From the IMG/VR virus record IMGVR_UViG_3300045988_006728: a stretch of 64,000 nucleotides of DNA, one strand, 5' to 3'. Below are positions 1-61,003 of this stretch, in pieces (position 1 is the first letter of the stretch; each line of letters begins with the position of its first letter). The stretch is from a virus (taxonomy: Duplodnaviria > Heunggongvirae > Uroviricota > Caudoviricetes). The notes below the pieces were generated by a model. The model made no database searches and had not been told where the DNA came from. It saw only the letters and a list, made by a program, of their open reading frames with translations. A program made the position numbers and the translations under genes.

Positions 1-190
1 TTAAAAAAGTTGTTGACAAAGTACTTGACAAGGTGTAGGCTTCTAAATACTTAGAAGATAACTTAAAAGGTTCCTCTAAAAAGGCTATTTAAACAGATAT
101 CTTTCTGGATATCTATCTTTTATCTTAAAAGCCTTTTAAGAGGTCTTATAAGAGGCATACCAATGAAAAACAGAACAAACAAAGGCCAGT
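1..190. repeat. Tandem direct repeat, copy 1 (190-bp unit)
   Basis: Positions 1-190 are identical to 191-380; the unit carries two TTGACA hexamers, palindromes CTTCTAA-ATAC-TTAGAAG and AGATATC-N6-GATATCT, and the first 12 codons of the ORF at 353. Confidence 0.9.
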
Positions 191-389
191 TTAAAAAAGT
201 TGTTGACAAAGTACTTGACAAGGTGTAGGCTTCTAAATACTTAGAAGATAACTTAAAAGGTTCCTCTAAAAAGGCTATTTAAACAGATATCTTTCTGGAT
301 ATCTATCTTTTATCTTAAAAGCCTTTTAAGAGGTCTTATAAGAGGCATACCAATGAAAAACAGAACAAACAAAGGCCAGTTTAAAAAAG
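191..389. repeat. Tandem direct repeat, copy 2 plus 9-nt start of a third copy
   Basis: Exact repetition of 1-190; sequence diverges after ttaaaaaag at 381-389. Confidence 0.9.
203..243 (+). promoter_or_regulatory. Sigma70-like promoter with duplicated -35 (TTGACA-N6-TTGACA); identical copy at 13-53
   Basis: TTGACA at 203-208 and 215-220 inside the conserved 12-mer CTTGACAAGGTG; the -10 region is weak (TAGGCT/TACTTA). Confidence 0.4.
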
Positions 390-2387: not shown

Positions 2388-2464
2388 CTCTGTTTAGCTC
2401 AGCTTGGTAGAGCGTTCCGTTTGGGGCGGTAAGGCCGGAGGTTCAAGTCCTCCAACAGAGACCA
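2388..2464 (+). tRNA. tRNA-Pro (anticodon TGG)
   Basis: Acceptor ctctgtt/aacagag, D-arm gctc-agcttggta-gagc, T-arm ggagg-ttcaagt-cctcc, anticodon loop tttgggg, encoded CCA. Confidence 0.7.
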
Positions 2465-2471
2465 AATTAAT

Positions 2472-2549
2472 GTTCCAGTAGACAAAATGGTAAAGTCACC
2501 ACTCTTTCAAAGTGGATATCTGAGGGTTCAAATCCCTTCTGGAACGCCA
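2472..2549 (+). tRNA. tRNA-Glu (anticodon TTC)
   Basis: Acceptor gttccag/ctggaac, anticodon stem ccact/agtgg with loop ctttcaa, T-loop ttcaaat, CCA. Confidence 0.7.
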
Positions 2550-2556
2550 GTTTTGA

Positions 2557-2628
2557 CAGAAGACCAATTACAGCAAACTTAATCTACTCATCTGACACGA
2601 AATCGGACAAAGAAGATATTTGGTCTGG
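2557..2628 (+). ncRNA. Structured inter-tRNA element, unit 1 (A box CAGAAGACC ... B box GGTCTGG); candidate Y RNA-like stem-loop
   Basis: AGACC of the A box pairs with GGTCT of the B box; conserved TaCAGCAA follows the A box; same framing repeated at three other sites. Confidence 0.35.
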
Positions 2629-2639
2629 TCATTGAGAAT

Positions 2640-2716
2640 TGCGGGTATAGAGAAAGGGCGTCTCACATGTCTCATTAGCATGGTATCGGCAGGTTCGACT
2701 CCTGCACCCGCCTCCA
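2640..2716 (+). tRNA. tRNA-Met (anticodon CAT)
   Basis: Anticodon stem catgt/gcatg with loop ctcatta, T-arm gcagg-ttcgact-cctgc, CCA; first acceptor pair mismatched and position 37 is T. Confidence 0.55.
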
Positions 2717-2722
2717 ATTTTG

Positions 2723-2782
2723 CAGAAGACCGTATTCAGCAACAAAATACTTTTTGCGGATAAAAGAAAAAACACGGTCTGG
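2723..2782 (+). ncRNA. Structured inter-tRNA element, unit 2 (A/B box framed)
   Basis: CAGAAGACCgtaTtCAGCAA at 2723 and GGTCTGG at 2776; the inner helix shows compensatory changes relative to unit 1. Confidence 0.35.
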
Positions 2783-2793
2783 CAATGTATTAA

Positions 2794-2870
2794 GGTTAGG
2801 AAGCACATAAGGTATGTGCGGTCGCCTGTTAAGCGAATGGCACAGGGTTCGAATCCCTGACTAACCGCCA
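2794..2870 (+). tRNA. tRNA-Asn (anticodon GTT)
   Basis: Anticodon loop ctgttaa, T-arm caggg-ttcgaat-ccctg, acceptor 3' strand actaacc, CCA. Confidence 0.65.
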
Positions 2871-2879
2871 AATTTAAAT

Positions 2880-2967
2880 GTGTCGTTATCCCGTAGATGG
2901 TAGCGGTGGGGACTGTAAATCCCTTGTCATTGAGACTCGGTAGGTTCGACTCCTACACGGCACACCA
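2880..2967 (+). tRNA. tRNA-Tyr (anticodon GTA), class II with long variable arm
   Basis: 88 nt; anticodon stem gggga/tccct with loop ctgtaaa; T-arm gtagg-ttcgact-cctac; CCA. Confidence 0.65.
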
Positions 2968-2972
2968 ATAAA

Positions 2973-3050
2973 GGTTATGTAGTTTAATTTGGTTAAAATA
3001 CTCCCCTGTCACGGGAGATGATGAGGGTTCAAATCCCTTCGTAACCGCCA
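2973..3050 (+). tRNA. tRNA-Asp (anticodon GTC)
   Basis: Anticodon stem ctccc/gggag with loop ctgtcac; T-loop ttcaaat; CCA. Confidence 0.65.
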
Positions 3051-3111
3051 ATTTTGAGAGGGCTATTTAGCCCCTCCCTTAAAGGGTTCTTACGAGTATC
3101 CTTTAAAGGAG

Positions 3112-3184
3112 CAGAAGACCAAATACAGCAAGAACGTATGAAATTTCAAGCCAATTTAATTTTGAAAATTTAAACTTGGTCTGG
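3112..3184 (+). ncRNA. Structured inter-tRNA element, unit 3a (A/B box framed)
   Basis: CAGAAGACCaaaTaCAGCAA at 3112 and GGTCTGG at 3178. Confidence 0.35.
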
Positions 3185-3197
3185 CTCAACAAATTTA

Positions 3198-3329
3198 CAG
3201 AAGACCGTTTACAGCAAAACTTAAACAATCTATTTCTCCGGTAAAGAAAAGGCGAAGGTTCGATTCCTTCACTCGGCAGATGTCGAGTTGGTGTAATGGT
3301 AGCACTTAAGATGATAAACAACGGTCTGG
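3198..3329 (+). ncRNA. Structured element, unit 3b, with internal tRNA-mimic domain; candidate YrlA-like Y RNA
   Basis: A box at 3198 and B box at 3323 frame a T-arm (gaagg-ttcgatt-ccttc, 3254-3270), a 7-bp acceptor-like helix closed by a 4-nt loop (actcggc-agat-gtcgagt, 3271-3288) and a D-arm (gtg-taatggtag-cac); there is no anticodon arm. Confidence 0.4.
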
Positions 3330-3330
3330 T

Positions 3331-3474
3331 AATTATCTTTGTAGATAAGTTATTAAGCTTACCTGTGAGTATGCGACCACAAAGGGTGAAAGGGTAAATT
3401 CTAGATTTAAACCCAAAAAGGCACATCGCTACAGACCTTAAGCAAGTCTGGGTAGCTTATCTACAAAGATAATT
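3331..3474 (+). repeat. Perfect 19-bp inverted repeat (AATTATCTTTGTAGATAAG) flanking a 106-bp structured segment
   Basis: 3331-3349 is the exact reverse complement of 3456-3474; the interior holds further hairpins (cagac-N8-gtctg); ends 4 nt before tRNA-Lys. Confidence 0.6.
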
Positions 3475-3478
3475 TAAT

Positions 3479-3554
3479 GGAAGTGTAGCAGAATGGTGAT
3501 GCGGCAGACTTTTAATCTGACAGGCGATGGGTTCGAATCCCTCCACTTCTACCA
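3479..3554 (+). tRNA. tRNA-Lys (anticodon TTT)
   Basis: Anticodon loop cttttaa, D-loop aatggtga, T-loop ttcgaat, acceptor ggaagtg/cacttct, CCA; paralog of the tRNA at 5201. Confidence 0.7.
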
Positions 3555-3558
3555 ATAT

Positions 3559-3635
3559 GGTTCAGTCGCAGATAAGGTAATGCAGGGGTCTCATAAGCCC
3601 TATGAATGTGGGTTCGATTCCCATCTGAACCTCCA
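3559..3635 (+). tRNA. tRNA with anticodon CAT (Met, fMet or Ile2)
   Basis: Perfect acceptor ggttcag/ctgaacc, anticodon loop ctcataa, T-loop ttcgatt, CCA. Confidence 0.7.
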
Positions 3636-3636
3636 A

Positions 3637-3712
3637 GCTGGTATAGTTAAGAAGGTTATAACACTCCCCTGATAAGGGAACATCGGTGGTTCGATTCCAC
3701 CTACCAGTACCA
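3637..3712 (+). tRNA. tRNA-Ile (anticodon GAT)
   Basis: Anticodon loop ctgataa, T-arm ggtgg-ttcgatt-ccacc, CCA. Confidence 0.7.
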
Positions 3713-3723
3713 ATTTCAATAAA

Positions 3724-3759
3724 GTTGTTGACATTGAGATGTGACTACTTTATAGTAAC
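3724..3759 (+). promoter_or_regulatory. Sigma70-like promoter (TTGACA-17-TATAGT)
   Basis: Strong -35/-10 match; followed by about 230 nt of structured non-coding sequence before tRNA-Arg. Confidence 0.5.
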
Positions 3760-3987
3760 CTTAGTTTTCGTTGCGTAGCGTCTATTTTGCAAATTTAAAA
3801 TAAATGCAAACGACAATGTTTTTCTGGCAGTAGCTTGATAGGCTAAACACCAGTGAGGTCTTCCAATCCCTCATCAAAGAATTTGGCGTACTCGCCCACG
3901 GTATGATTAATAATGTGGGCAACACTCTAAAGGGTATCCCTTATGGGTCTTGGCTTAAATGCAATAAGTACCCTTTAAAATGTTAAT

Positions 3988-4064
3988 GCACCCTTAGTTC
4001 AATTGGATAGAGCAACGGTCTTCTAAATCGTTAGTTACAGGTTCGAATCCTGTAGGGTGTGCCA
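3988..4064 (+). tRNA. tRNA-Arg (anticodon TCT)
   Basis: Anticodon stem acggt/atcgt with loop cttctaa; T-loop ttcgaat; acceptor gcaccct/agggtgt; CCA. Confidence 0.7.
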
Positions 4065-4207
4065 ATTTAGTTAGCAGATTGCTTAGACGACCTTATCGGG
4101 TCTCCGTGTAAGGAGGTGGTCTGTATCTCATGTTTTCCAGAACATGTAAATAATCTGAGAAGGTGCTTTACAGTGTTGAGATAATACGGTAAGCTTCGAA
4201 TTATAGT

Positions 4208-4290
4208 GTGGGACGATGTTAAGACTCTAAGGCATGAGCAACGGCCTCCAAAACCGTTTCAAAGTGGTTCAACTCCTCCGTCCCATGCCA
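4208..4290 (+). tRNA. Atypical tRNA-like gene, anticodon loop ctCCAaa (Trp?), 8-bp acceptor helix
   Basis: 8-bp helix gtgggacg/cgtcccat, discriminator G, CCA and T-loop ttcaact are present, but the D-region is about 8 nt too long for a canonical fold. Confidence 0.35.
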
Positions 4291-4303
4291 AAGTCTTATT
4301 AGG

Positions 4304-4393
4304 GGTAGGTAGCGGCTAATGGTAGCCAAACTGTCTTGAAAACAGTTGCCACTGTAGAGATACGGTGAGGGTTCGACTCCTTTACTTACCGCC
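4304..4393 (+). tRNA. tRNA-Ser (anticodon TGA), class II
   Basis: 90 nt; anticodon stem actgt/acagt with loop cttgaaa; long variable arm; T-loop ttcgact; discriminator G; only CC of CCA encoded. Confidence 0.65.
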
Positions 4394-4662
4394 TAATAAG
4401 ATTTAAAGCCAAGCTTCATTCGGATGTTGCTTTGGTATCCCTCGTGTATTGTCGTACACGCACAGTAAAGCACCTAGTAGGTGTCACGGAGAAGAGATAA
4501 TATCAAGCTCTCCAAAGGTTCTAGTCACCGGATTAAACAAGACTATGCAAAGACCTTTTTAGGTCTTTTTAGAGGGCTTCTAAGGTTATTACAGCTTGTT
4601 GTGGAACCTTGTTGCTTAGGTTCTTAGAAGTTCTCTAAAAAGATTTAATGGGAGATTGACAT

Positions 4663-5115
4663 ATGGCACGTAGCAGTTTGACTAAAGATATTCTTGAACC
4701 TTTAGTAAAGGGTTCAGTATCATTCAGAGAAGTGCTTATAAAGCTTGGGAGAAAACCATCAGGTGGTTCTCAGTCACATCTAAAGCGTGTTATAGAGAAG
4801 TTTGAAATAGACACTTCTCATTTCCTCGGACAAAAGGCTGGTAAGATTAAAACTGTACCAAAAAGAAAGCCTGAAGAAATCTTAATTCTACGTGAATCTG
4901 GTGAAAGAGCAAGGTCTTCACAACTAAGAAGAGCTTTAATAGCATCTGGTATCGAATACAAATGCTCTAAATGCGGTCAGTTACCGGAGTGGTTGGGCAA
5001 CCCTCTAACTCTTGATGTTGACCACATTAATGAGAACTGGTTAGATGATAGAAAAGAGAATCTTCGGTTCTTATGTCCAAATTGCCACAGTCAATTCTCA
5101 AGGCATTTGATTTAA
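4663..5115 (+). CDS. HNH homing endonuclease inside the tRNA array
   Basis: 150-aa ORF with C-terminal HNH signature DVDHINENW...RFLCPNCHSQ; stop codon lies 2 nt before the next tRNA. Confidence 0.7.
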   Translation: MARSSLTKDILEPLVKGSVSFREVLIKLGRKPSGGSQSHLKRVIEKFEIDTSHFLGQKAGKIKTVPKRKPEEILILRESGERARSSQLRRALIASGIEYKCSKCGQLPEWLGNPLTLDVDHINENWLDDRKENLRFLCPNCHSQFSRHLI

Positions 5116-5116
5116 T

Positions 5117-5193
5117 GCACCTATAGCCCAACTGGTAGAGGCAGCAGACTTAGAATCTGCTCAGTGTGAGTTCGAATCTCTCTAGGTGTACCA
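5117..5193 (+). tRNA. tRNA with anticodon TAG (decodes Leu CUA) but class I, short-variable-arm fold
   Basis: Acceptor gcaccta/taggtgt, anticodon stem gcaga/tctgc with loop cttagaa, T-loop ttcgaat, CCA; variable arm only 5 nt. Confidence 0.55.
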
Positions 5194-5200
5194 AATTAAT

Positions 5201-5276
5201 GCAGGTGTAGCAAAATGGTTATGCGGCTGACTCTTAATCAGTAAGACGATGGGTTCAATTCCCTCCACCTGTACCA
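5201..5276 (+). tRNA. tRNA-Lys (anticodon CTT)
   Basis: Paralog of tRNA-Lys(TTT) at 3479 with a compensatory change in the anticodon stem; loop ctcttaa; CCA. Confidence 0.65.
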
Positions 5277-5282
5277 GACATT

Positions 5283-5358
5283 GGGGATGTAGTTTACATG
5301 GTTAAAACATAAGTTTTGCAAACTTAAGTACAGGGTTCAATTCCCTGCTTCTCCACCA
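5283..5358 (+). tRNA. tRNA-Ala (anticodon TGC)
   Basis: G3-U70 wobble pair in the acceptor stem (ggggatg/cttctcc), anticodon loop tttgcaa, T-arm caggg-ttcaatt-ccctg, CCA. Confidence 0.7.
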
Positions 5359-5364
5359 ATTAGT

Positions 5365-5439
5365 GCATCCATAGTTTAAACGGGAAAATTACAGTCTTCC
5401 AAACTGAGGTTGAGGGTTCGAGTCCCTTCGGATTCTCCA
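5365..5439 (+). tRNA. tRNA-Gly (anticodon TCC), acceptor stem imperfect
   Basis: Anticodon loop cttccaa, T-arm gaggg-ttcgagt-ccctt, CCA; two mismatches in the acceptor helix. Confidence 0.5.
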
Positions 5440-32056: not shown

Positions 32057-32386
32057 TTAGTCTGCCAACCTTAAATTGAAATTAACACCAAATTTTTCAC
32101 ATACTTCCAACATATACTCAAGGGAAACATTACCAGTGAGGTGGATTATGTTGGATACACGAGCCTGAGAGATACCACAAATTTTAGCAACTTGCTCTTG
32201 AGAAAGACCTCTGGATTTAATCTCTCTCTTAAAACGATGTGCAACGAAGTCTCTCATTTCGTCTACATCCATTGGACAAATATAACTCTCCATTTCAGCC
32301 TCTCTATCAGCCTCCCAATCATCTTGTGGGGCATAAGGGTCAAAAACCTCATTCATCTTTCTTCTTCCGTTTGCGTGAAGTGTCAA
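32057..32386 (-). CDS. Helix-turn-helix DNA-binding protein (XRE-like)
   Basis: 109-aa ORF with LSQEQVAKICGISQARVSNI. Confidence 0.45.
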   Translation of the reverse strand: MTLHANGRRKMNEVFDPYAPQDDWEADREAEMESYICPMDVDEMRDFVAHRFKREIKSRGLSQEQVAKICGISQARVSNIIHLTGNVSLEYMLEVCEKFGVNFNLRLAD

Positions 32387-32946: not shown

Positions 32947-33039
32947 AATGACCTCAAAGTTATATTAAATTTTGTATTACATTGAGTATAAAAATAAGCT
33001 ATAACACCTGACTTGTCAACAGATTTTATAGCTTATTTG

Positions 33040-33300
33040 GCAGATTTTTTATAAGGCTACTGCCATCCTTCCATACCAAACCTCACCTGACCTCGCCTAA
33101 CCCTACCTTACCCCACCATACAGCACCTTATTAAAACACCCTGTTTAAAGACCTTTTAAAAAGGTAAGTCTCATTTTAATGTAGCTGAGACTAACTACCC
33201 ATACCGAACCTCACCGCACCATACTACACCTGACACCACCTTACACCACCGCACCATACCTGACCGAGCTACACATCACTTAAAAACCCTTTTCAAAGAC
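33040..33300. repeat. G-depleted, CA-rich non-coding region with two similar blocks of about 60 bp
   Basis: Plus strand 33061-33120 and 33191-33270 are almost G-free; blocks begin ccataccaaacctcacc and cccataccgaacctcacc. Confidence 0.6.
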
Positions 33301-33554
33301 TCTTAAGTGATGCTGGTGAGTACCCGTTGGTTTATGCTGCTCAGCATACTCACCAAATTTTCTATGTCAACAACTTTCTAATAAAGTTTTATGAAGATTT
33401 TGCTTAACAACCCGCCTCACATGCCTGTGCTCTTTCTTAATAAAGAGTGACCTCTTCTTGATAGAGCGCCTATTCTTGTAAGTATTACTAGGATACTTAT
33501 CATGAACCGGACAACAGCTACCCGGATTGGTAAACTTGATAATCTCTCTTTTCA

Positions 33555-35105: not shown

Positions 35106-35760
35106 AACACTACTCCTATTACTGTTCACGATGTTCTACTTCTCTGTACGTTCGTCGATAGTATATAATAAGCTGTGCTAACTCGTTGCTTTTAACATCT
35201 GAACGTAGCAGTTGCCAATCAAAACCTTTACCGACTCTTCCATATAAACTAAACAGTTTTACTTTGCGTTTCATTTTGGTATACCAATACTCAGAAGTCA
35301 ATATTAATACGTTCGCCCTTAAGGACTCCAGTACGGTCTCTTGCAATCTTGCCGTCAACAATAAGGATATGTGCAGCCCTTAAAGAGTCACTATTAAAAG
35401 CTTTTACGAACTTACTAGGCATCACTACAATGGGCATCTCCTGAATCAACTCTGGAGTATAGCAATTGTCGTGAAGTTGCTGAATAACGTCTGCAAGTGT
35501 CATTTTTGATGTCTCCAATACTCAATGTCAATAAGTTCTTGTGCAATGCTTTTAAGGTTACCTTTCAAGAAAACCTTCTCAGAACCTGAAAGAGATGAAT
35601 TGTCAATTAACCTGTTCATTCTCTCAAACAACTTCTGCTTACGATTTTTGATAGTCTCCTTTGAAGCACCTTTCATCATTGCTGCATGGGTTCTTCCACG
35701 ATGGCTCATAATCCCTCCTATACAAGATGTAGTATAAGGTACTCTTCCCTGAGCACCTTG

Positions 35761-36324
35761 TCAACTTAGTTTTGCAAACTCTCCGTGGAGTTTAATAGCA
35801 GCTTCACAGTAAGCTTTATGGGCTTCTTCTGGTGTGTCAAACATACCAAGATGATAGTTTTTACCTTGTAAACGTATCATTGCTCGAAACCTTTTACTTA
35901 TCTTCTGTACACCTTTTGGCAACCCAGATGGGGACTTTCTTGACCGATTGCAAGAGTTTTGTGAAGCTGTACAAACCCTTAAATTCAAGTACCTATTGTC
36001 CCAACCGTCCCCATTCTTATGGTCAACCTGTAAGTTTTTATCAGGCAGGTATCCATCCACATATAGTATTGCTAGACGGTTAGCTTGGTAGCCTTTACCA
36101 TCAAGCAATAACTGAACAGACTTGTGACCATCTGTGTTTATCCTATAATTTCCTGCCTTTTTACCTCCAAAACGAGAGTTGAAGTTCTTATTGCCTCGTG
36201 ATACCGGCTCTCTAAACTTCCAAGTAAAGACCCCTGTTTCGGGGTCGTAGTCCAATAGCTCCTTAAGACGAATTTCTGTAATCATTTCAACACCATCAAT
36301 GTACTTCCAACCAGCTCTTACCAA
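35761..36324 (-). CDS. HNH homing endonuclease with AP2-type DNA-binding domain
   Basis: 187 aa; HNH region QVDHKNGDGWDNRYLNLRVC...N.CN; overlaps the 3' end of the polymerase gene by 29 nt; paralog of 45864-46388. Confidence 0.7.
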   Translation of the reverse strand: MVRAGWKYIDGVEMITEIRLKELLDYDPETGVFTWKFREPVSRGNKNFNSRFGGKKAGNYRINTDGHKSVQLLLDGKGYQANRLAILYVDGYLPDKNLQVDHKNGDGWDNRYLNLRVCTASQNSCNRSRKSPSGLPKGVQKISKRFRAMIRLQGKNYHLGMFDTPEEAHKAYCEAAIKLHGEFAKLS

Positions 36325-38995
36325 CCTTACCTGTGCCAGTTACAAGCGTCTCACTCTTCAAACCTAAATTCTTAGATGCCTGACCATACATCCAGTCAGT
36401 TATGGCTTTCACTTCTTGAGTCATACTTTCTGGACATTCCCAACTGTTTTCATCGTGGTATGCCAGCAAAAGCCTAGCACCAATTGCTGGTTTTCGTCCA
36501 TTTAATTTTGTCAACCCTTCTTCACATGCTCTTCTACAAGCAAGGTTAATTGCCTCATTTTGAATCTGAGCCTCCGAACCCATGAGCAAATAATTCAATA
36601 ACTTATGTGGAGATTTACACCACAACCAAGCTCCAGCAACCTTTACAAAACCCCCTTTAGAGATTGCAGCAGTCTTACCAAACACCTCTTCAAGTGCCTT
36701 TTTAGTTGCTTTGTAGTCAGCTTCCAAGTCATCTAACAGCTTCTTAATTTTAGGCAAACGGATAAAGTAAGTCTGTTTAGTCAGCGCACCTTCCTGAGTA
36801 GTTGCAGCCTTAATCGTCTTAGCAAACTTCTCATCACCTGCACCGAACAGCAGTGCATAGATACCATTCTTAGCTTTCTTACGGCCTTTGCTAATCTCAT
36901 GAAGAAGATTCTCATCCTGAGTAGCTCGACAAGTCAAGATATCCTGCTCATCATTCAAGCTAAAGTAAATACTGTTCAATGTATGTGCATCAGTCCCTGA
37001 ATAGACAACGTACAGGTCATTCTCAGAGTCATAGCGAAGGTACTTATCAATCTCTGGGTTGAGGTACTCATCAAAATGTTTGCAGTAATAGCGTCCATCT
37101 TCTTGACGAATGAACTCAATTTCTTCTTTACCTTGCGTTACCGCTTTGGTGAAGTCTTTATCACCCATAAAGTTACAAAGAAGAACTAGCTGGGCTGAGT
37201 TCATATCTACAGAGACAACGTTAGTACCTTCCTCACAAATCCATACTGCCCTCATTGGTTCTCCATAGACAGCAGCACCAGACGGTACGTTTACAATACC
37301 ATACTGTGTCATACGTCCAGTTGAAGTACCAAACACCATTGCACCAGCACTAAGGCGACCATCAGGACGAATCTGGTTAAGCCAACCTTTTTCATCATCC
37401 TTTGAGTTCTCAATAGTTCTGCGTCGGTGCATCAAAGTATAGTACTTAGCAATCTTCTGTCCAAGCTCACCTTCAATCGTATCATAAGATGATTCAGTAA
37501 GTTTTGGTGAAGTACGGATTAAGCAAGGTTCAAGCAAATCTGTGTATTTCTTCACAGACCAGTTATGCTCGATGTACTGTACACCTTCATGTTCAACATA
37601 ACTCAAACCACACCGCTCAACCATTTCCTGCCACTTAGGATGCTTTGTAATCATCTTTTTATTGTCTTTGAAACGACAAACTTTGACAGGGCGACCATCT
37701 GAGTCTTTCTTGTAATTCCAGTCATCTGGAACCCAACCAACTGATTTCAAGTAGTCTTTAACAACTGCTACCTGAGTCATACGAGAAACTTCAAACTCAA
37801 TTGGTGTATATGGCGCATCAATCAAACCTGTGTAGCGACTTGACTCAAGTTCAAAGTGGTTAACAACGTGGCTGTTATAGTACTTCACAGTTTTGACTGT
37901 TTTTACTGGTTTCCAGTCTTTGCATTTCTTACCAATCTTTGCGTTCAACTCATTGCAAATTGCACGAGCATCCTTCATTGCTACAAAACCCTCCTTGTAC
38001 TCTTCACCAGTTACAGAGTTGGTTGGTGTATAGCAATTTCTCTTTTCAATGTTAAAAATCTTTGTAGTTGGCTTACCAAATGGTTTGATTTCATAAGTCT
38101 GCATCTCACCATTACGCACCTGCTGACGATACTTCGTCTTAGGGTACTTGGTAATTCTTTTCAGTCCATCTGCATGACCAAATGCTTCAACATACTCATT
38201 CCAAGCTTTTGCAAACTCTTCTCCAGTGACTTTACCTTTGGTCTTAATAGTTGGAGGTAGATGCGGTTCAACTTCTGAAGCAAGCTCATTAGTCAACTTG
38301 TCAAGTTCCTTTACATGGAACTCCATAAGCTCTTTATCAGCTTTCCAGCCATTGATAGCTTGTTGACTCATCCAGAAAGATGTTTCTTTAGCTCGCATGT
38401 AGGTTTCATAAGTGTCTATGCCACACTTCTTAAGCTTGAGATATTCATTATCAAGTGCCCGTTTAGTTTTGGCGTTAATACGGATATCTTCTACAACACG
38501 AGTGAAGATTTCTGCATTCCACACACCCCAATGTTCAATCTCTGGTTTACGAACACCAACACGAGCACCCCATGCAGCCAAACCATGAGCACCTTTATAG
38601 CCCTTTGGAGTTGGTCTATCCATCCACTGAACACGAGACTGGATAAGAGAATCCTGAAAGAAATTACTCCACGGTTTACACTTTGGATTATCAAAGTTCC
38701 ATAAATCAGGTGCAATGTGATTGAAAACCCACCAGTCATAACCGAGACCATTATGGATGCAAAGACGTTTTGCCTTTAACGCAAACTCAATGCCTTCACG
38801 TAAGCCACCCTTAATGTACTTGGTATACTTGTGACCGAGGATAGGCTCATCTGTAAAGACCCATACAGGCGGCTCTTCATCGTCAGATTTATAGTCTGCG
38901 AAAGCCATTACGTGCACTTTAGTGAACTCAAGGAGTAAACCATCAGTTTCTGTATCACCAACTAAATGTAAGTTTTTAAAATCTACGTTTTCCAT
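36296..38995 (-). CDS. DNA polymerase, family A, with 3'-5' exonuclease domain
   Basis: C-terminal motifs VVSVDMNSAQL (A), KKAKNGIYALLFGAG (B) and LLAYHDE (C); likely start at 38995 with a GAGGGAG RBS (track ORF extends to 39025). Confidence 0.8.
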   Translation of the reverse strand: MENVDFKNLHLVGDTETDGLLLEFTKVHVMAFADYKSDDEEPPVWVFTDEPILGHKYTKYIKGGLREGIEFALKAKRLCIHNGLGYDWWVFNHIAPDLWNFDNPKCKPWSNFFQDSLIQSRVQWMDRPTPKGYKGAHGLAAWGARVGVRKPEIEHWGVWNAEIFTRVVEDIRINAKTKRALDNEYLKLKKCGIDTYETYMRAKETSFWMSQQAINGWKADKELMEFHVKELDKLTNELASEVEPHLPPTIKTKGKVTGEEFAKAWNEYVEAFGHADGLKRITKYPKTKYRQQVRNGEMQTYEIKPFGKPTTKIFNIEKRNCYTPTNSVTGEEYKEGFVAMKDARAICNELNAKIGKKCKDWKPVKTVKTVKYYNSHVVNHFELESSRYTGLIDAPYTPIEFEVSRMTQVAVVKDYLKSVGWVPDDWNYKKDSDGRPVKVCRFKDNKKMITKHPKWQEMVERCGLSYVEHEGVQYIEHNWSVKKYTDLLEPCLIRTSPKLTESSYDTIEGELGQKIAKYYTLMHRRRTIENSKDDEKGWLNQIRPDGRLSAGAMVFGTSTGRMTQYGIVNVPSGAAVYGEPMRAVWICEEGTNVVSVDMNSAQLVLLCNFMGDKDFTKAVTQGKEEIEFIRQEDGRYYCKHFDEYLNPEIDKYLRYDSENDLYVVYSGTDAHTLNSIYFSLNDEQDILTCRATQDENLLHEISKGRKKAKNGIYALLFGAGDEKFAKTIKAATTQEGALTKQTYFIRLPKIKKLLDDLEADYKATKKALEEVFGKTAAISKGGFVKVAGAWLWCKSPHKLLNYLLMGSEAQIQNEAINLACRRACEEGLTKLNGRKPAIGARLLLAYHDENSWECPESMTQEVKAITDWMYGQASKNLGLKSETLVTGTGKVGKSWLEVH

Positions 38996-39054
38996 TTTTA
39001 CTCCCTCTAAAATCATTAACCTCATACATTACTGCAAAAAATTATAAAAAGCAA

Positions 39055-39095
39055 GTTGACAATGCACTTGACAAGGTGTTAATCTTTGCGAAGTG
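39055..39095 (+). promoter_or_regulatory. Promoter with duplicated TTGACA and conserved CTTGACAAGGTG 12-mer in a divergent AT-rich control region
   Basis: Same TTGACA-N6-TTGACA architecture as in the terminal repeat; ACTTAAAAGGTT motif follows at 39106. Confidence 0.45.
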
Positions 39096-39252
39096 GGTTT
39101 TTACTTAAAAGGTTACTTAACAGTTTAACTATACAGATACTTTAAAACTCTTAAAAGATTATTTAATAGCTTTTAAAAAGCTTTAAAGTATAACGTATAG
39201 AATACGTTAAGATAAAAGATTAAAACTTAATAGTTACTTAAAAGAGGCTTAC

Positions 39253-39675
39253 ATGCAGAAAATGTTTGTTCACCCAGACATAGCTGACTTTGTTAGAGCT
39301 TTGCAGAAGTTGGAAGAACTTGACATTGCTGCTCAACGGGAATATGCTCACCATCACAGGAGAATGGTTGATATACAACATGAAATAGAGTTGTCTGAAA
39401 ACTATGAAGATGACTTAAAATGCTCTGTATTTGAGCATATGAAAGATGTTGCTACAGCTAGACGTAAAGCTAAAGACACAGTTGCTTTACTAGATTCTCT
39501 TAAAAAGAGGTTGCAAAGTGGTACAGACTTGTGTAATCTAGCGTCACTGATTAACGATGTTGAAACTTCTTGGGATAGGCACTATTATCCACGTTCTGAA
39601 AAGACACTTGACTTTTCTTCATCAGAAAACTTAAAATGTTCTAGAAAGAAACTTAACCAACTGAGAGAGAAATAA
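39253..39675 (+). CDS. Hypothetical protein
   Basis: 140-aa ORF. Confidence 0.4.
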   Translation: MQKMFVHPDIADFVRALQKLEELDIAAQREYAHHHRRMVDIQHEIELSENYEDDLKCSVFEHMKDVATARRKAKDTVALLDSLKKRLQSGTDLCNLASLINDVETSWDRHYYPRSEKTLDFSSSENLKCSRKKLNQLREK

Positions 39676-44863: not shown

Positions 44864-45910
44864 ATGGAGAAGTACACATTAACAAAACTTCCCGATTCAG
44901 TTACACATGTTTTTATTGACTCTGACAGTATTGCCTATAAAGGCGCTTGTGTAGTTGAGAAAGCAAAATATAAATATGTCAATAAACTCACAGCAGAAGA
45001 ATCTGAATCATTTGATAATGCAAAAGATGCTGCAAGATGGTTAGCAGACCAGAGAATCCTTGTGGAAGAGCTTGGCCTGACATTTGATGAAGATGAATGG
45101 GAAAGACAGACTTGGAAAGAAGCTAAGAGTGAAAAAGAAGCTATCATGGCTACTCAACAGGTGCTTCAGGAATGGCTTAAGATTGTTGGTAAAGAGAGAA
45201 CTTGGGTAGGTTATTTAACAGAGAAAGGTGTGCATAAACATAAAGACATTAAAGGTCTTGAGCACCAATATCAAGGTAACCGCAAAGATGCTGTCACACC
45301 AACACACTTAGTTGCTTGTCGTGAGTATCTTCTGTCAAGACCAGAGTTTAAATTGATTCTTGATGGATTTGAAGCTGACTCTATCGTTATCGCTAAAGCT
45401 GAAAAGATGGGAAAAAAGGCTGCCTTAATGAGTATTGATAAAGACCTTCGCCAAGCTGAAGGTACTTACTGCATTGATATGACCTATGAAAAATCACCTT
45501 TAATTTTCATTGCTGATAACAACGTTGGTGAAATTTGGGATTGTCCAATAAAATCGACACCAAAAGCTAAGAAGACAGTTGGTGTAGGTTTTAAATTTCT
45601 TTGTTATCAAGCTGTGGCTGGTGATAATGCGGATAATTACTTTGGTTTAAAGGGTGTTGGCAAAGCTGCTGTGATGAAGGCTCTTGAAGGGAAAACAACT
45701 TACAAAGAGTGTCTTGATGCAATTTACGAGCTATATGCTAAGAAAGACTCCTACACTTATGTATCATGGGATGGTCAAACAATTACCAGAACACCTTTAG
45801 AATTAATGCAGCAACACTTTTTCTTAGCTTATCAGGAAAGAAATAAAAAAGACGATTTTACTTTTGATAAGTATGGGTGGACACCAAATGTTAACTCAAC
45901 AAACTCTTAA
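44864..45910 (+). CDS. RNase H / flap endonuclease-like 5'-3' exonuclease
   Basis: 348 aa; segments HVFIDSDSIAYKGA and GFEADSIVIA...MSIDKDL resemble the T4 RNase H acidic clusters as recalled. Confidence 0.5.
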   Translation: MEKYTLTKLPDSVTHVFIDSDSIAYKGACVVEKAKYKYVNKLTAEESESFDNAKDAARWLADQRILVEELGLTFDEDEWERQTWKEAKSEKEAIMATQQVLQEWLKIVGKERTWVGYLTEKGVHKHKDIKGLEHQYQGNRKDAVTPTHLVACREYLLSRPEFKLILDGFEADSIVIAKAEKMGKKAALMSIDKDLRQAEGTYCIDMTYEKSPLIFIADNNVGEIWDCPIKSTPKAKKTVGVGFKFLCYQAVAGDNADNYFGLKGVGKAAVMKALEGKTTYKECLDAIYELYAKKDSYTYVSWDGQTITRTPLELMQQHFFLAYQERNKKDDFTFDKYGWTPNVNSTNS

Positions 45911-46388
45911 AGAATACCTGCACTATGACCCCGAAACAGGGGTCTTTACTTGGTTAGTTGGTAGAAGAGGTAAGGCCAAAGCTGGCTCAGTAGCAGGTCT
46001 TAAACACCATAGTGGTTATATCTATATAAAACTCTTCGGAAAAAGATATGCAGCACACAGACTGGCAGTCTTGTATATGAAAGGCTACCTCCCAAAATTT
46101 GTTGACCACAAGAATGGTATCAGGCACGACAACTGGTTCGACAATTTGAGAGAGTGTAGCAGGTCAGACAACAACTGCAATGCAGTCAAAAGAAAAGATA
46201 ATAAGTCTGGTGTGAAGGGTGTATATTACCACAAGCAAAGAGGTAGATGGGCTGCACAAGTCAAGCATAATAAAGTATGCTACCATCTAGGTTTATTTGA
46301 CTCTATCACTGAGGCTGAATCAGTTGTCAAAAAGAAAAGAGAAGAACTACATAAAGAGTTTTCAAATCACGGAGAAGCTTATGAATGA
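45864..46388 (+). CDS. HNH homing endonuclease with AP2-type domain
   Basis: 174 aa; VDHKNGIRHDNWFDNLRECSRSDNNCN; shares the N-terminal motif YDPETGVFTW with 35761-36324. Confidence 0.7.
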   Translation: MISMGGHQMLTQQTLKEYLHYDPETGVFTWLVGRRGKAKAGSVAGLKHHSGYIYIKLFGKRYAAHRLAVLYMKGYLPKFVDHKNGIRHDNWFDNLRECSRSDNNCNAVKRKDNKSGVKGVYYHKQRGRWAAQVKHNKVCYHLGLFDSITEAESVVKKKREELHKEFSNHGEAYE

Positions 46389-47134: not shown

Positions 47135-47882
47135 CTCAAGAGAAGCAGTAAAAAACTGGAATCTTCGTTGTGGAAACACTCAAAAGCAACCTTACAGTGA
47201 TGAGTATTGGGAATCTTTAAAATCCCAGTCTCTGTGTATGCTGGAAGAAGCAAAAGAGCTTGTAAAAGCAATTGAAGAGAAAGACCCCATTGAGACACTG
47301 GATGCTCAGGCAGATTTGCAATATGTTCTTGACGGTTTGATTTACCTGTCACAACATGACCATAACGGTGCTATGAAAGCTGTTTGCCGTAATAATGACC
47401 TGAAGTACACAGATGACTATGAAGAAGCTTTAAAACGTCTTGCAGATATTGAGAAGCGTACTGGTCAAGAGTGTATTATCAGAATGTCAGTAGTTGATGG
47501 TAAAGAGTGGTATGCCATTGTTCGTGCAGCAGATGGGAAGATTATGAAGCAATCGAATCTCCCTAAAGTACAGCTTGGTGAATACATTGTAGAACTTGAA
47601 AGCCAAGAACTTTTTGTGGTAGTATCTGAGACATGCGTTATCTGCAAAGGTATTGTAGATAGTTTAAAGGATTTAGGTGTAGATGGTTTTGTAGAAGTTA
47701 ATCCAATTACCTCTAAAGCAGATAAAGACTTCTGTAAAGAGAATGGACTATGGATTGCAGACATTATCTACTATGATGGTGAGCAGTTCCATGTAACCTC
47801 ATACCCGAAACTGAATTATGATGCTAATAACCTGAAGTGCTGGTTAAAAGGGGTTGGTTATAATGGATTCACAGAACATTAA
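47127..47882 (+). CDS. MazG-like nucleotide pyrophosphohydrolase domain protein (putative)
   Basis: 251 aa; N-terminal helical EE..E...D motif cluster (LEEAKELVKAIEE...DAQADLQYVL). Confidence 0.35.
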   Translation: MFNSREAVKNWNLRCGNTQKQPYSDEYWESLKSQSLCMLEEAKELVKAIEEKDPIETLDAQADLQYVLDGLIYLSQHDHNGAMKAVCRNNDLKYTDDYEEALKRLADIEKRTGQECIIRMSVVDGKEWYAIVRAADGKIMKQSNLPKVQLGEYIVELESQELFVVVSETCVICKGIVDSLKDLGVDGFVEVNPITSKADKDFCKENGLWIADIIYYDGEQFHVTSYPKLNYDANNLKCWLKGVGYNGFTEH

Positions 47883-54816: not shown

Positions 54817-54862
54817 ACTTGACAAGGTGATGTAGGTCTTGATAGGCTTACATCACCTTTTT
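54817..54862 (+). promoter_or_regulatory. CTTGACAAGGTG promoter-like 12-mer followed by hairpin and T-run
   Basis: ggtgatgtagg ... cttacatcacc inverted repeat then tttttt, immediately after nrdD. Confidence 0.4.
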
Positions 54863-54969
54863 TATTGGATGTTAGATATGGCAGAGAGTATTATTGGATT
54901 GTTCATAGGTTCTGTCTTACTAGGGTTCTTTTTAGGACTCTCTTATTGTGAATTGAAAGGTAAGTTAAA

Positions 54970-60924: not shown

Positions 60925-61003
60925 AGTGTTTGACAAGGGGCTTCAAAACCCCTTAGAATAGCATCACAAAATGATTTATTAACTAACAAGAGAGAGTAAT
61001 AAG

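Follow-up and report, generated by a model that had tools for sequence, protein, structure and literature searches.

What do two short sequence words do that recur in two divergent intergenic regions of a Felix O1-like phage genome? The DNA examined here (the window) is a 64,000-nucleotide stretch of virus record IMGVR_UViG_3300045988_006728, and represents a genome segment of a Felixounavirus (Felix O1/wV8-like) phage. The 6 kb around the locus of interest matched 263 phage records, predominantly of Felixounavirus and most at 90-97% identity, and the same holds for the matches to the first 1.5 kb of the window. The locus is the 257-bp intergenic stretch 38996-39252, the counterpart of the Felix O1 gene 96/97 divergent region (hereafter region B). 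The second site, window positions 1-380, lies within the other divergent intergenic region, that of Felix O1 genes 40/41 (region A). An earlier interpretation made from the letters alone (the sequence-only reading) had taken the words for sites of a common factor linking a terminal repeat to a polymerase/early-gene control region. Our analysis indicates that they are parts of a conserved promoter-plus-leader module that heads two long rightward operons and is most likely read by host RNA polymerase.

A motif search across the window placed both words far above chance for shuffled sequence. The 12-mer CTTGACAAGGTG has exact copies at 24-35, 214-225, 39067-39078, and 54818-54829, and the second word, ACTTAAAAGGTT, at 61-72, 251-262, and 39103-39114. 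When one mismatch was allowed, CTTGACAAGGTG had seven matches against 0.41 expected, a count reached by 0 of 100 shuffles, and ACTTAAAAGGTT had six against 0.86 expected. The sequence-only reading had placed the first word correctly at 24 and 214 and wrongly at 39073 and 54821 (the actual starts being 39067 and 54818); for the second it was right about the three copies, which begin at 61, 251, and 39103 and not at 65, 255, and 39106. These shifts of 3-6 nt leave intact the link that had been drawn between the polymerase/ORF97 control region and another regulatory region. Since the copies at 24/214 and 61/251 belong to the two halves of an exact 190-bp tandem duplication, the independent loci number three for CTTGACAAGGTG and two for ACTTAAAAGGTT.

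The two words are pieces of one composite module of about 75 bp, not separate motifs. The module comprises an A-tract, TTGACA (hexamer 1), N4-7, a further TTGACA (hexamer 2), N4-7, TAnnnT, N17-19 (28 in Hafnia B), the box ACTTAAAAG(G/A), whose consensus can also be written ACTTAAAAGR, and a pyrimidine run. We aligned regions A and B from Felixouna-, Susp-, and Mooglevirus, Hafnia phage Zyzzx, and several IMG/VR lineages, and found the module conserved in the three genera and in Zyzzx. Both hexamers are invariant across genera, with hexamer 1 recurring as an exact TTGACA at 13-18 and 203-208 in region A, and the 4-7 nt on either side of hexamer 2 are variable. This variation means that region A of other genera lacks the exact 12-mer; its counterparts there are CTTGACAACGTG and CTTGACAAGCTG, or CTTGACAAGGTA in the relative Pr103Blw, with both TTGACA kept.

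This architecture is specific. In the window, as in the complete Pr103Blw genome, TTGACA-N4-14-TTGACA is confined to regions A and B, and a profile hidden Markov model (HMM) of the module gave full-length matches in the window only at 2-74, 192-264, and 39045-39114 (E 5e-18 to 4e-16). A search of 2.9 million viral contigs (IMG/VR) with the composite pattern returned 61 hits, about 50 of which are A or B modules of contigs of ~85-93 kb; the remaining hits are unrelated chance matches. Relatives from Erwinia (Kolesnikvirus) and Pectobacterium carry a single TTGACA, followed by N17-18 and TACATT or TACCCT, at the orthologous place, and the single TTGACA of the Erwinia Kolesnikviruses aligns with hexamer 1. 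Pr103Blw (MW481326.1) also has a weaker third copy at 86010-86092, beyond the window, which reads TTGACG, N7, TTGACA, N4, TACATT, continues with an GGGGGTTT-type initial region and then ACTTAAAAGATTC, and stands upstream of a right-end-region gene. The module family hence has at least three members per genome.

Conservation extends over the whole of region B, which is as conserved as the polymerase gene and far more so than ORF97-98. The intergenic region is 100% identical to that of Felix O1, compared with 93-96% for its flanks, and between genera it is ~80-85% identical, versus 83-85% for the polymerase gene and 59-66% for ORF97-98.

Hexamer 1 and the TAnnnT element that follows it probably form a host sigma-70 promoter that heads the rightward unit. 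The distance between them is 17-18 bp in 14 of 14 module variants, and it is preserved through compensating indels around hexamer 2, which slides within the spacer (N4+N7, N5+N6, N6+N5, N6+N6, and N7+N4). The element itself takes the forms TAATCT, TAGTCT, TATTGT, TAGGCT, TAGCCT, TAGTGT, TAAGTT, TACTCT, and TACATT, thus varying at the three middle positions only, with the A at -11 and the T at -7 always kept. Constant spacing combined with TAnnnT is the evolutionary signature of a sigma-70 -35/-10 pair with a weak -10. The spacer measures 18 bp to TAATCT in region B and 17 bp to TAGGCT in region A, and in region B only, the GTG of the 12-mer provides the TG of a TGn extended -10. Upstream of hexamer 1, AAAAGCAAG shows no variation among 17 distinct sequences drawn from several lineages, Felixouna-, Susp-, and Mooglevirus among them, and has the counterpart TTAAAAAAGTTG in region A; this A-rich stretch may function as an UP element. 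The same -35/-10 geometry is present at other intergenic promoter-like sites of the window (737, 2241, 2332, 28788, 43879, 54819, and 60930). In addition, the relatives AYO145A and ASO1A bear predicted sigma-70 promoter features at positions orthologous to both regions, and the feature in the GenBank record of AYO145A falls at the hexamer 1 site.

The motifs are best read as shared recognition sites, as the sequence-only reading had held. Since the 12-mer has a consensus -35 hexamer at its core, the simplest candidate for the common factor is host sigma-70 RNA polymerase. The Felix O1 authors proposed the 96/97 region as a site of transcription start (PMC3185647, sec. 2.5), and the 'P41' of Felix O1 is the region A promoter (PMC3185647). 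Felix O1 was reported to lack an RNA polymerase of its own and any recognised sigma-modifying protein (PMC3185647, sec. 2.5), which supports a role of the host polymerase. Moreover, Felix O1 ORFs 41, 42, 96, 97, 98, and 99 fall in the same reverse transcription PCR class, with maximal expression at 25 min (PMC3185647, Table 3), and this co-expression supports the idea that the host sigma-70 holoenzyme starts both rightward units. The label 'early', which had been given to the operon starting at ORF97, is only partly apt in view of that 25-min peak. Exact 39-bp promoter repeats occur between early genes in Felix O1 (PMC3185647, sec. 2.1).

Several observations weigh against the promoter assignment, or at least against its sufficiency. 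The -10 hexamers match TATAAT at 3/6 positions only, below the minimum of 4/6 per hexamer required by our scanner, and a consensus scan consequently lists neither the region A nor the region B promoter. The Felix O1 authors saw no obvious promoter in the 96-97 region (PMC3185647), and a full-text search found no paper on transcription start in Felixounavirus. We identified no convincing promoter for the leftward polymerase operon. Finally, a plain promoter leaves unexplained the conserved hexamer 2, the ACTTAAAAGR box at a fixed distance, and ~150 bp of near-invariant AT-rich sequence.

Two other promoter assignments were rejected. If hexamer 2 were the -35 of an overlapping second promoter, a conserved TAnnnT should follow 15-18 bp downstream; there is none in region B, and the -10 candidates available to it in region A (AATACT or TACTTA) are lost in Suspvirus and in IMG/VR lineages L066 and L079. 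Read from the minus strand as TTGTCA, the hexamers might provide the -35 of a polymerase promoter, but no -10 stands at the right distance; a leftward candidate annotated in AYO145A, at 39014-39046, is weak.

Based on these findings, we propose that host sigma-70 RNA polymerase would bind hexamer 1 and the TG-extended -10, aided by the upstream A-tract, and would transcribe from around 39092 into ORF97 and the dNMP (deoxynucleoside monophosphate) kinase and primase/helicase genes. DUF5681, tRNA, packaging, and structural genes make up the other long rightward unit. A paralogous copy of the module stands at its head, which explains the recurrence of the motifs at window 1-380. The features of both regions are listed in Table 1.

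Table 1. Coordinates of the module, its leader, the adjoining genes, and further copies of the 12-mers (window positions)
Feature	Position	Strand	Comment
A-rich upstream stretch TTATAAAAAGCAAG, UP-element-like	39042-39055	+	adjoins hexamer 1 of region B
Hexamer 1, TTGACA, predicted -35 of rightward promoter P_B	39056-39061	+	18 bp upstream of TAATCT
12-mer CTTGACAAGGTG with hexamer 2, TTGACA (39068-39073)	39067-39078	+	inside promoter spacer
Predicted -10, TAATCT, preceded by TGt	39080-39085	+	predicted start ~39091-39093
Initial transcribed region TTGCGAAGTGGGTTTTT	39086-39102	+	nearly invariant across compared genera
Leader box ACTTAAAAGGTT	39103-39114	+	~+11 to +22
Imperfect AT-rich palindrome, ~100 nt	39112-39215	+	DNA fold -15.2 kcal/mol, z -3.7
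Inner palindrome boxes CTTTAAA/TTAAAAG	39140-39157		
Inner palindrome boxes CTTTTAA/TTTAAAG	39170-39188		
Outer palindrome arms CTTAAC and GTTAAG	39116-39121 and 39206-39211		
Local 7-bp hairpin/palindrome AACGTAT-AGA-ATACGTT	39192-39208	+	arms 39192-39198 and 39202-39208; DNA fold z -3.3
Last CTTAAAAG box over Shine-Dalgarno AAGAGG (39242-39247), then ORF97 ATG (39253)	39237-39255	+	read from sequence
Family A DNA polymerase gene	36296-38995	-	true ATG at 38995, GAGGGAG ribosome-binding site before ATG
ORF97	39253-39675	+	ATG at 39253, heads operon
Region A, two exact 190-bp tandem copies of paralogous module	1-380	+	1-190 = 191-380
Region A hexamers 1 and 2	13-18 and 25-30; 203-208 and 215-220		
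Region A -10, TAGGCT	36-41; 226-231		
Region A boxes	61-72; 251-262		
Region A palindrome CTTAAAAGCCTTTTAAG	124-140; 314-330		
Third 12-mer locus	54818-54863	+	TTGACA 54819-54824 as -35, 18 bp from TAGGCT 54843-54848
One-mismatch copy GTTGACAAGGTG	35754-35765	-	intergenic, upstream of minus-strand gene; TTGACA, N17, TACCTT

Gene layout was taken from the open reading frame (ORF) map and the annotation of relatives. It bears out the earlier view that the interval 39026-39252 separates the minus-strand polymerase gene from a plus-strand operon, which runs through ORF97, ORF98, dNMP kinase, and a T7 gp4-like primase/helicase.

From the predicted start near 39092, the transcript would carry an untranslated AT-rich leader of ~160 nt. 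The form of its initial region is recognisable in Hafnia region B (TTGCTACATGGGGTTTT) and in the third module copy of Pr103Blw (TGTTCGAGGGGGTTTAT). The box follows the -10 by 17 nt in region B and by 19 nt in region A, and it stands at the same distance in Felix A/B, Moogle A/B (TCTTAATAG in B), Susp A/B, and Hafnia A; the sequence from -10 to box is unrelated between regions A and B. Felixounavirus has AAAAGGTT in both A and B, and the other genera have AAAAGACTC in both (TAATAGACTC in Moogle B). This joint change amounts to one event; either a factor that reads the box in both regions or gene conversion between them could lie behind it.

The palindrome downstream of the box is made of invariant CTTAAAAG/CTTTAAAG boxes. 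Its inner boxes are invariant in 17 distinct sequences, with polymorphism confined to linkers of 2-3 nt, even within the genus. The outer helix displays two compensatory pairs, and in Susp- and Mooglevirus the local hairpin has undergone two compensatory double changes, one from A:T to T:A and one from C:G to T:A. The two helices share one 3' arm and are thus alternative partners. This covariation represents two evolutionary events only, and does not discriminate between an RNA switch and palindromic protein sites. As the sequence-only reading had noted, the interval is rich in CTTAAAAG-like repeats. Exact copies of CTTAAAAG number 20 in the window versus 5.3 expected, and words of the CTTAAAAG/CTTTTAAG/CTTTAAAG set number four in intergenic region B versus 0.16 expected and three in region A versus 0.11, with 0 of 2000 local dinucleotide shuffles reaching the observed count in either region. 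We also observed a leader motif, AACAG(A/G)T(A/T)(T)CTTT, common to regions A (92-114 and again 282-304) and B (39133-39147). It occurs in both regions of the Erwinia Kolesnikviruses too, at a variable distance from the promoter, and its region A copy belongs to an inverted repeat, AGATATC/GATATCT.

The interval had further been described as very AT-rich, and the leader holds the extreme of the window in this respect. Positions 39094-39243 are the most AT-rich 150 bp of the 64 kb (79.3% vs 60.8% overall), and 39141-39240 are the least stable 100 bp (-105.1 vs a mean of -128.5 +/- 5.0 kcal/mol, z about +4.7).

The claim that did not hold is that of a terminal repeat at window 1-380. Each 190-bp unit contains the promoter with its 5' leader, plus the opening 12 codons of the DUF5681 gene, and the duplication is bounded by the 9-bp microhomology TTAAAAAAG at 1, 191, and 381. 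The first copy leaves a truncated ORF of 21 codons (163-228), whose stop is the TAG of the second copy's -10. All top relatives listed among 253 matching records have one unit, the 1500-nt query mapping to ~1309 nt in two pieces, and in ASO1A a single 190-bp unit is flanked by the direct repeat TTAAAAAAG. The duplication appears, from these comparisons, to be specific to this isolate, and its junction at TTAAAAAAG points to slippage or illegitimate recombination at microhomology. As the window starts exactly at the first repeat copy, an effect of assembly linearisation is possible.

The terminal repeats of relatives are different objects. That of UAB_Phi87 measures 608 bp, by Bal31 digestion and run-off sequencing (PMC4837284), and that of Pr103Blw 581 bp, by PhageTerm (PMC8303462). 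The Pr103Blw repeat is annotated at both record ends (1-581 and 87841-88421), gave no blastn match to the window, and has its end ~8.4 kb to the left of the position that corresponds to the window start. Window 1-380 accordingly has neither the position of the relatives' 581-608-bp repeat nor homology to it. Whereas a terminal repeat would be expected between converging unit ends with a copy at each physical end, the copies here are adjacent and lie in the divergent 40/41 region. The Pr103Blw terminal repeat is dense in the 8-mers CTTGTTAG, CTGTTAAG (the reverse complement of CTTAACAG), CTTAAAAG, and CTTTTAAG, and CTTAACAG/TAAACAG repeats likewise crowd the leader of Pectobacterium phage Wc4-1. 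Conceivably, one factor reads CTTnnnAG-type words in both the terminal repeat and the control regions.

Could the motifs be explained otherwise? That they are a chance or compositional artefact, or a terminal-repeat or packaging signal, is in our view very improbable. An AT-rich region and abundant TTGACAA-type words (33 in the window vs 21.9 expected) would suit an artefact, but they account neither for the frequency of the exact 12-mers relative to shuffled sequence, nor for boxes enriched even against local dinucleotide shuffles (0/2000), nor for an architecture conserved across genera. In the same way, the coincidence of the window start with the first repeat copy and the density of CTTAAAAG-like and CTGTTAAG-like 8-mers in the true Pr103Blw repeat would suit a terminal repeat, yet the repeat of relatives lies elsewhere, unmatched in the window, and the duplication is missing from the top relatives listed. 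The remaining alternatives are compatible with the promoter. We regard as a tentative possibility that hexamer 2, the +11 box, and the CTTAAAAG/CTTTAAAG palindromes are an operator set through which a phage DNA-binding protein would delay, shut off, or co-ordinate both promoters. This would add a layer to the promoter. In its favour, boxes stay invariant next to linkers of 2-3 nt that are polymorphic even within the genus. Many boxes are palindromic, such as CTTAAAAG-C-CTTTTAAG at 124-140; hexamer 2 lies within a 9-bp palindrome, CTTGACAAG, and CTTAAAAGACTCTTTAAAG of the Hafnia phage matches itself at 8/9 symmetric pairs. The concerted change of regions A and B from AAAAGACTC to AAAAGGTT in Felixounavirus points the same way, though as a single event it could be gene conversion, and a weak -10 together with the 25-min expression class would fit regulated promoters. 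On the other hand, hexamer 2 shifts by 2-3 bp relative to hexamer 1 and the -10 among lineages, a mobility hard to reconcile with a rigid dimer that touches RNA polymerase, and the half-site CTT...AAG is very short. A candidate protein is the Cro/C1-type helix-turn-helix protein 32057-32386(-), encoded in the leftward operon (HTH_3, E 6e-10), although it is linked to the sites by availability only.

An element acting at the RNA level is improbable by our estimate. Alternative hairpins or an AU-rich translational operator in the leader, the latter comparable to the UUAAA-rich operator of T4 gene 32 mRNA, would govern the translation or stability of ORF97 and downstream genes. The nested structure given by RNAalifold has 98% of its cells paired, slid controls fall to 11-58%, and two helices with two compensatory pairs each and a shared 3' arm are what mutually exclusive pairings would produce; there is also one G-C to G-U change, and the last CTTAAAAG box overlaps the Shine-Dalgarno sequence. 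However, the single-sequence RNA fold reaches a z of only -1.6, the stems are almost pure A-U, and the inner helices never vary and so provide no covariation evidence. The covariation comes down to two events, 201 of 500 shuffles reach the observed number of pairs with a change on both sides, and symmetric changes of this sort would also be predicted at palindromic DNA sites that bind a dimer. No known RNA family matched in Rfam, in which the best hits in 38950-39350 (E 1.4-5.7) stay far under gathering scores, passed in the window by tRNAs only. Pairing of the mRNA 5' end with the Shine-Dalgarno region, as seen in a single-sequence fold, was by inspection not conserved in the aligned Moogle sequence. 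Similarly low is the probability that we attach to a transcription-activated replication origin, in which the promoter would fire into an unstable, palindromic unwinding element near replication genes; replication initiation was the second role that the sequence-only reading had suggested. The layout is suggestive, since the predicted promoter (39056-39085) lies directly upstream of the least stable DNA of the window (39141-39240), which is also within its most AT-rich 150 bp and overlaps the ~100-nt imperfect palindrome, amid polymerase and T7 gp4-like primase/helicase genes; the invariance of the sequence also goes beyond promoter needs. Yet it is usually the composition of unwinding elements that is conserved and not each base, in contrast to the specific boxes kept here. 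Region A, headed by the same module, is less extreme in AT content, and a long AU-rich 5' leader explains the composition equally well. A literature search for start sites or mapped origins in this phage group found nothing relevant, and GC skew merely tracks gene orientation, which makes it uninformative on an origin.

The promoter-plus-leader interpretation, to which we return, describes nothing unusual in kind: sigma-70 phage promoters that sit in divergent control regions and are followed by a regulatory leader are well known, and this one is partly annotated in relatives. The invariance of the leader boxes suggests protein recognition, or an RNA/DNA hairpin, that would tune both units together. 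A more ambitious version, which we consider rather unlikely, would see in the tandem -35 module, the +11 ACTTAAAAGR box, and the CTTAAAAG array a dedicated control device present across much of the subfamily Ounavirinae. In that case, a phage protein or a remodelled host polymerase would recognise the spacer TTGACA and the leader boxes, and the device would time, co-ordinate, or make terminator-resistant two rightward units of 30-37 kb, with possible replication coupling at region B. The long operons of Felix O1 are crossed by many intrinsic terminators (PMC3185647, Table 2).

These findings have implications for a group of classic Salmonella-typing phages that are now widely used in biocontrol and therapy. 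The analysis locates the likely promoters of two of the four transcription units, and these share an unusual conserved architecture, with a -35-like hexamer in the spacer, a box at ~+11, and an invariant AT-rich palindromic leader. What had been taken for a terminal repeat is, moreover, a tandem promoter duplication, so that a likely mis-annotation is put right. Were the plain promoter the whole story, the result would be ordinary; a phage-specific reader of hexamer 2 or of the boxes, if true, would raise its interest, and the control device, if real, would be the first handle on gene-expression programming in Felix O1-like phages.

The third locus of the 12-mer differs from the two modules. 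At 54818 the word is interleaved with the terminator hairpin of nrdD (AAGGTGATGTAGG / CTTACATCACCTT plus a T-run), whose stem uses AAGGTG; the locus is kept in Pr103Blw with G.U-compatible stem changes, and it matches the module profile HMM only in part (E 0.08). The promoter-like settings of this locus and of the one-mismatch copy on the minus strand indicate that TTGACAAGGTG, found also in Pr103Blw at 47543(-), recurs as an extended -35 word in the promoter-like sites of this phage. Terminator-promoter composites were observed at 54819-54863, 60930-60960, and 2233-2269, where the intrinsic terminator hairpin of the upstream gene lies in or across the spacer or the -35 of a TTGACA-N17/18-TAnnnT promoter for the next genes; these composites recall the promoter-early stem-loop (PeSL) cassettes of T4.

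Neighbouring genes were examined for possible regulators. The Cro/C1-type protein of 32057-32386(-) is small, has a sub-threshold similarity to Sigma70_r4 (E 1.4e-4) besides its Pfam HTH_3 match, is annotated as 'putative transcriptional regulatory protein' in relatives, and was the only recognisable DNA-binding regulator among eight proteins screened. ORF97 encodes a helical protein of 140 aa with homologues only in this phage group; nine were found, and those named by source are Shigella and Yersinia phage proteins. As a regulator or single-strand-binding protein it found no backing, with no Pfam hit, no PDB sequence hit, and membership of PHROG 4039, a family without known function. Its AlphaFold model is a generic helical hairpin (predicted local distance difference test score, pLDDT, 72.5) without Foldseek hits at E <= 0.001. 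A sequence search with ORF98 gave no result, and a preprint on Bas63 PhageMaP contains nothing on these intergenic regions.

Elsewhere in the window, 420 bp between minus-strand genes (32947-33366) have no ORF in the ORF map and contain, on the plus strand, G-poor, C/A-rich repeats with a 10-bp periodicity, including five copies of ACCCCACCTT at 33080-33130 and CACCTGACAC at 33227-33250; few segments of the window are as AT-rich and as unstable as the 5' part of this stretch. A 174-aa ORF at 45864-46388(+), between the exonuclease gene and the next, is homing endonuclease-like by inspection only, and Pr103Blw has no gene at this position. At its 3' end the polymerase gene meets an HNH endonuclease gene (35761-36324, minus). 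Two strong promoter-like sites, at 2241 (TTGACA-N17-TAATAT) and 2332 (TTGACA-N18-TAAAGT), precede the tRNA gene cluster at 2388-5436, in which 13 tRNAs exceed the Rfam gathering score.

How does the module compare with known phage control elements? The combination of a TTGACA in the spacer with a box at a fixed distance is not described in PMC3185647, PMC4837284, or PMC4472883, and neither are the invariant AT-rich palindrome and the joint change of the paralogous copies. Like the sigma-70 early promoters of other phages (T7 A1-A3, T5 early, and lambda PL), it has TTGACA, a spacer of 17-18 bp, TAnnnT, and A-rich sequence upstream, at an intergenic site that faces the downstream genes; unlike them, it has a weak -10 (3/6), an invariant TTGACA within the spacer, and a fixed-distance box in the initial transcribed region. 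T4-type PeSL cassettes similarly place repeated early-type sigma-70 promoters and stem-loops in intergenic regions, but modules A and B carry extra conserved elements and are not a simple promoter plus stem-loop, and the 190-bp duplication arose at a 9-bp microhomology unrelated to hairpins.

A parallel for the second hexamer is offered by the lambdoid PR' promoters, which possess a Q-binding element between -35 and -10, an extra TTGACT, and a sigma-dependent promoter-proximal pause. They share with our module a second -35-like hexamer beside the core promoter, a conserved element in the initial region, and very long operons crossed by terminators. The extra -35-like sequence of PR' is, however, downstream of the -10 and abuts a -10-like pause element, whereas here it is upstream of the -10. 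A pause module of this kind found no support in the aligned modules, which have no conserved TAnnnT or -10-like element after the start, and boxA (GCTCTTTAACAA)/nut-like antitermination signals with at most three mismatches gave 140 scattered hits in the window versus 102 expected, none of them specific to the leaders.

The phage origins of T7 and T4 are the last point of comparison. The primary origin of T7 consists of the tandem promoters phi1.1A/1.1B followed by an AT-rich region, and oriF and oriG of T4 each pair a promoter with a downstream unwinding element that forms an R-loop. Region B is reminiscent of both in having tandem recognition elements in the promoter region, directly upstream of the least stable and most AT-rich DNA, and in the genes that surround it, which encode a family A DNA polymerase and a gp4-like primase/helicase. 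The difference from T7 is that its two promoters are complete and serve the phage's own polymerase, whereas here one -10 is available for two -35-like hexamers.

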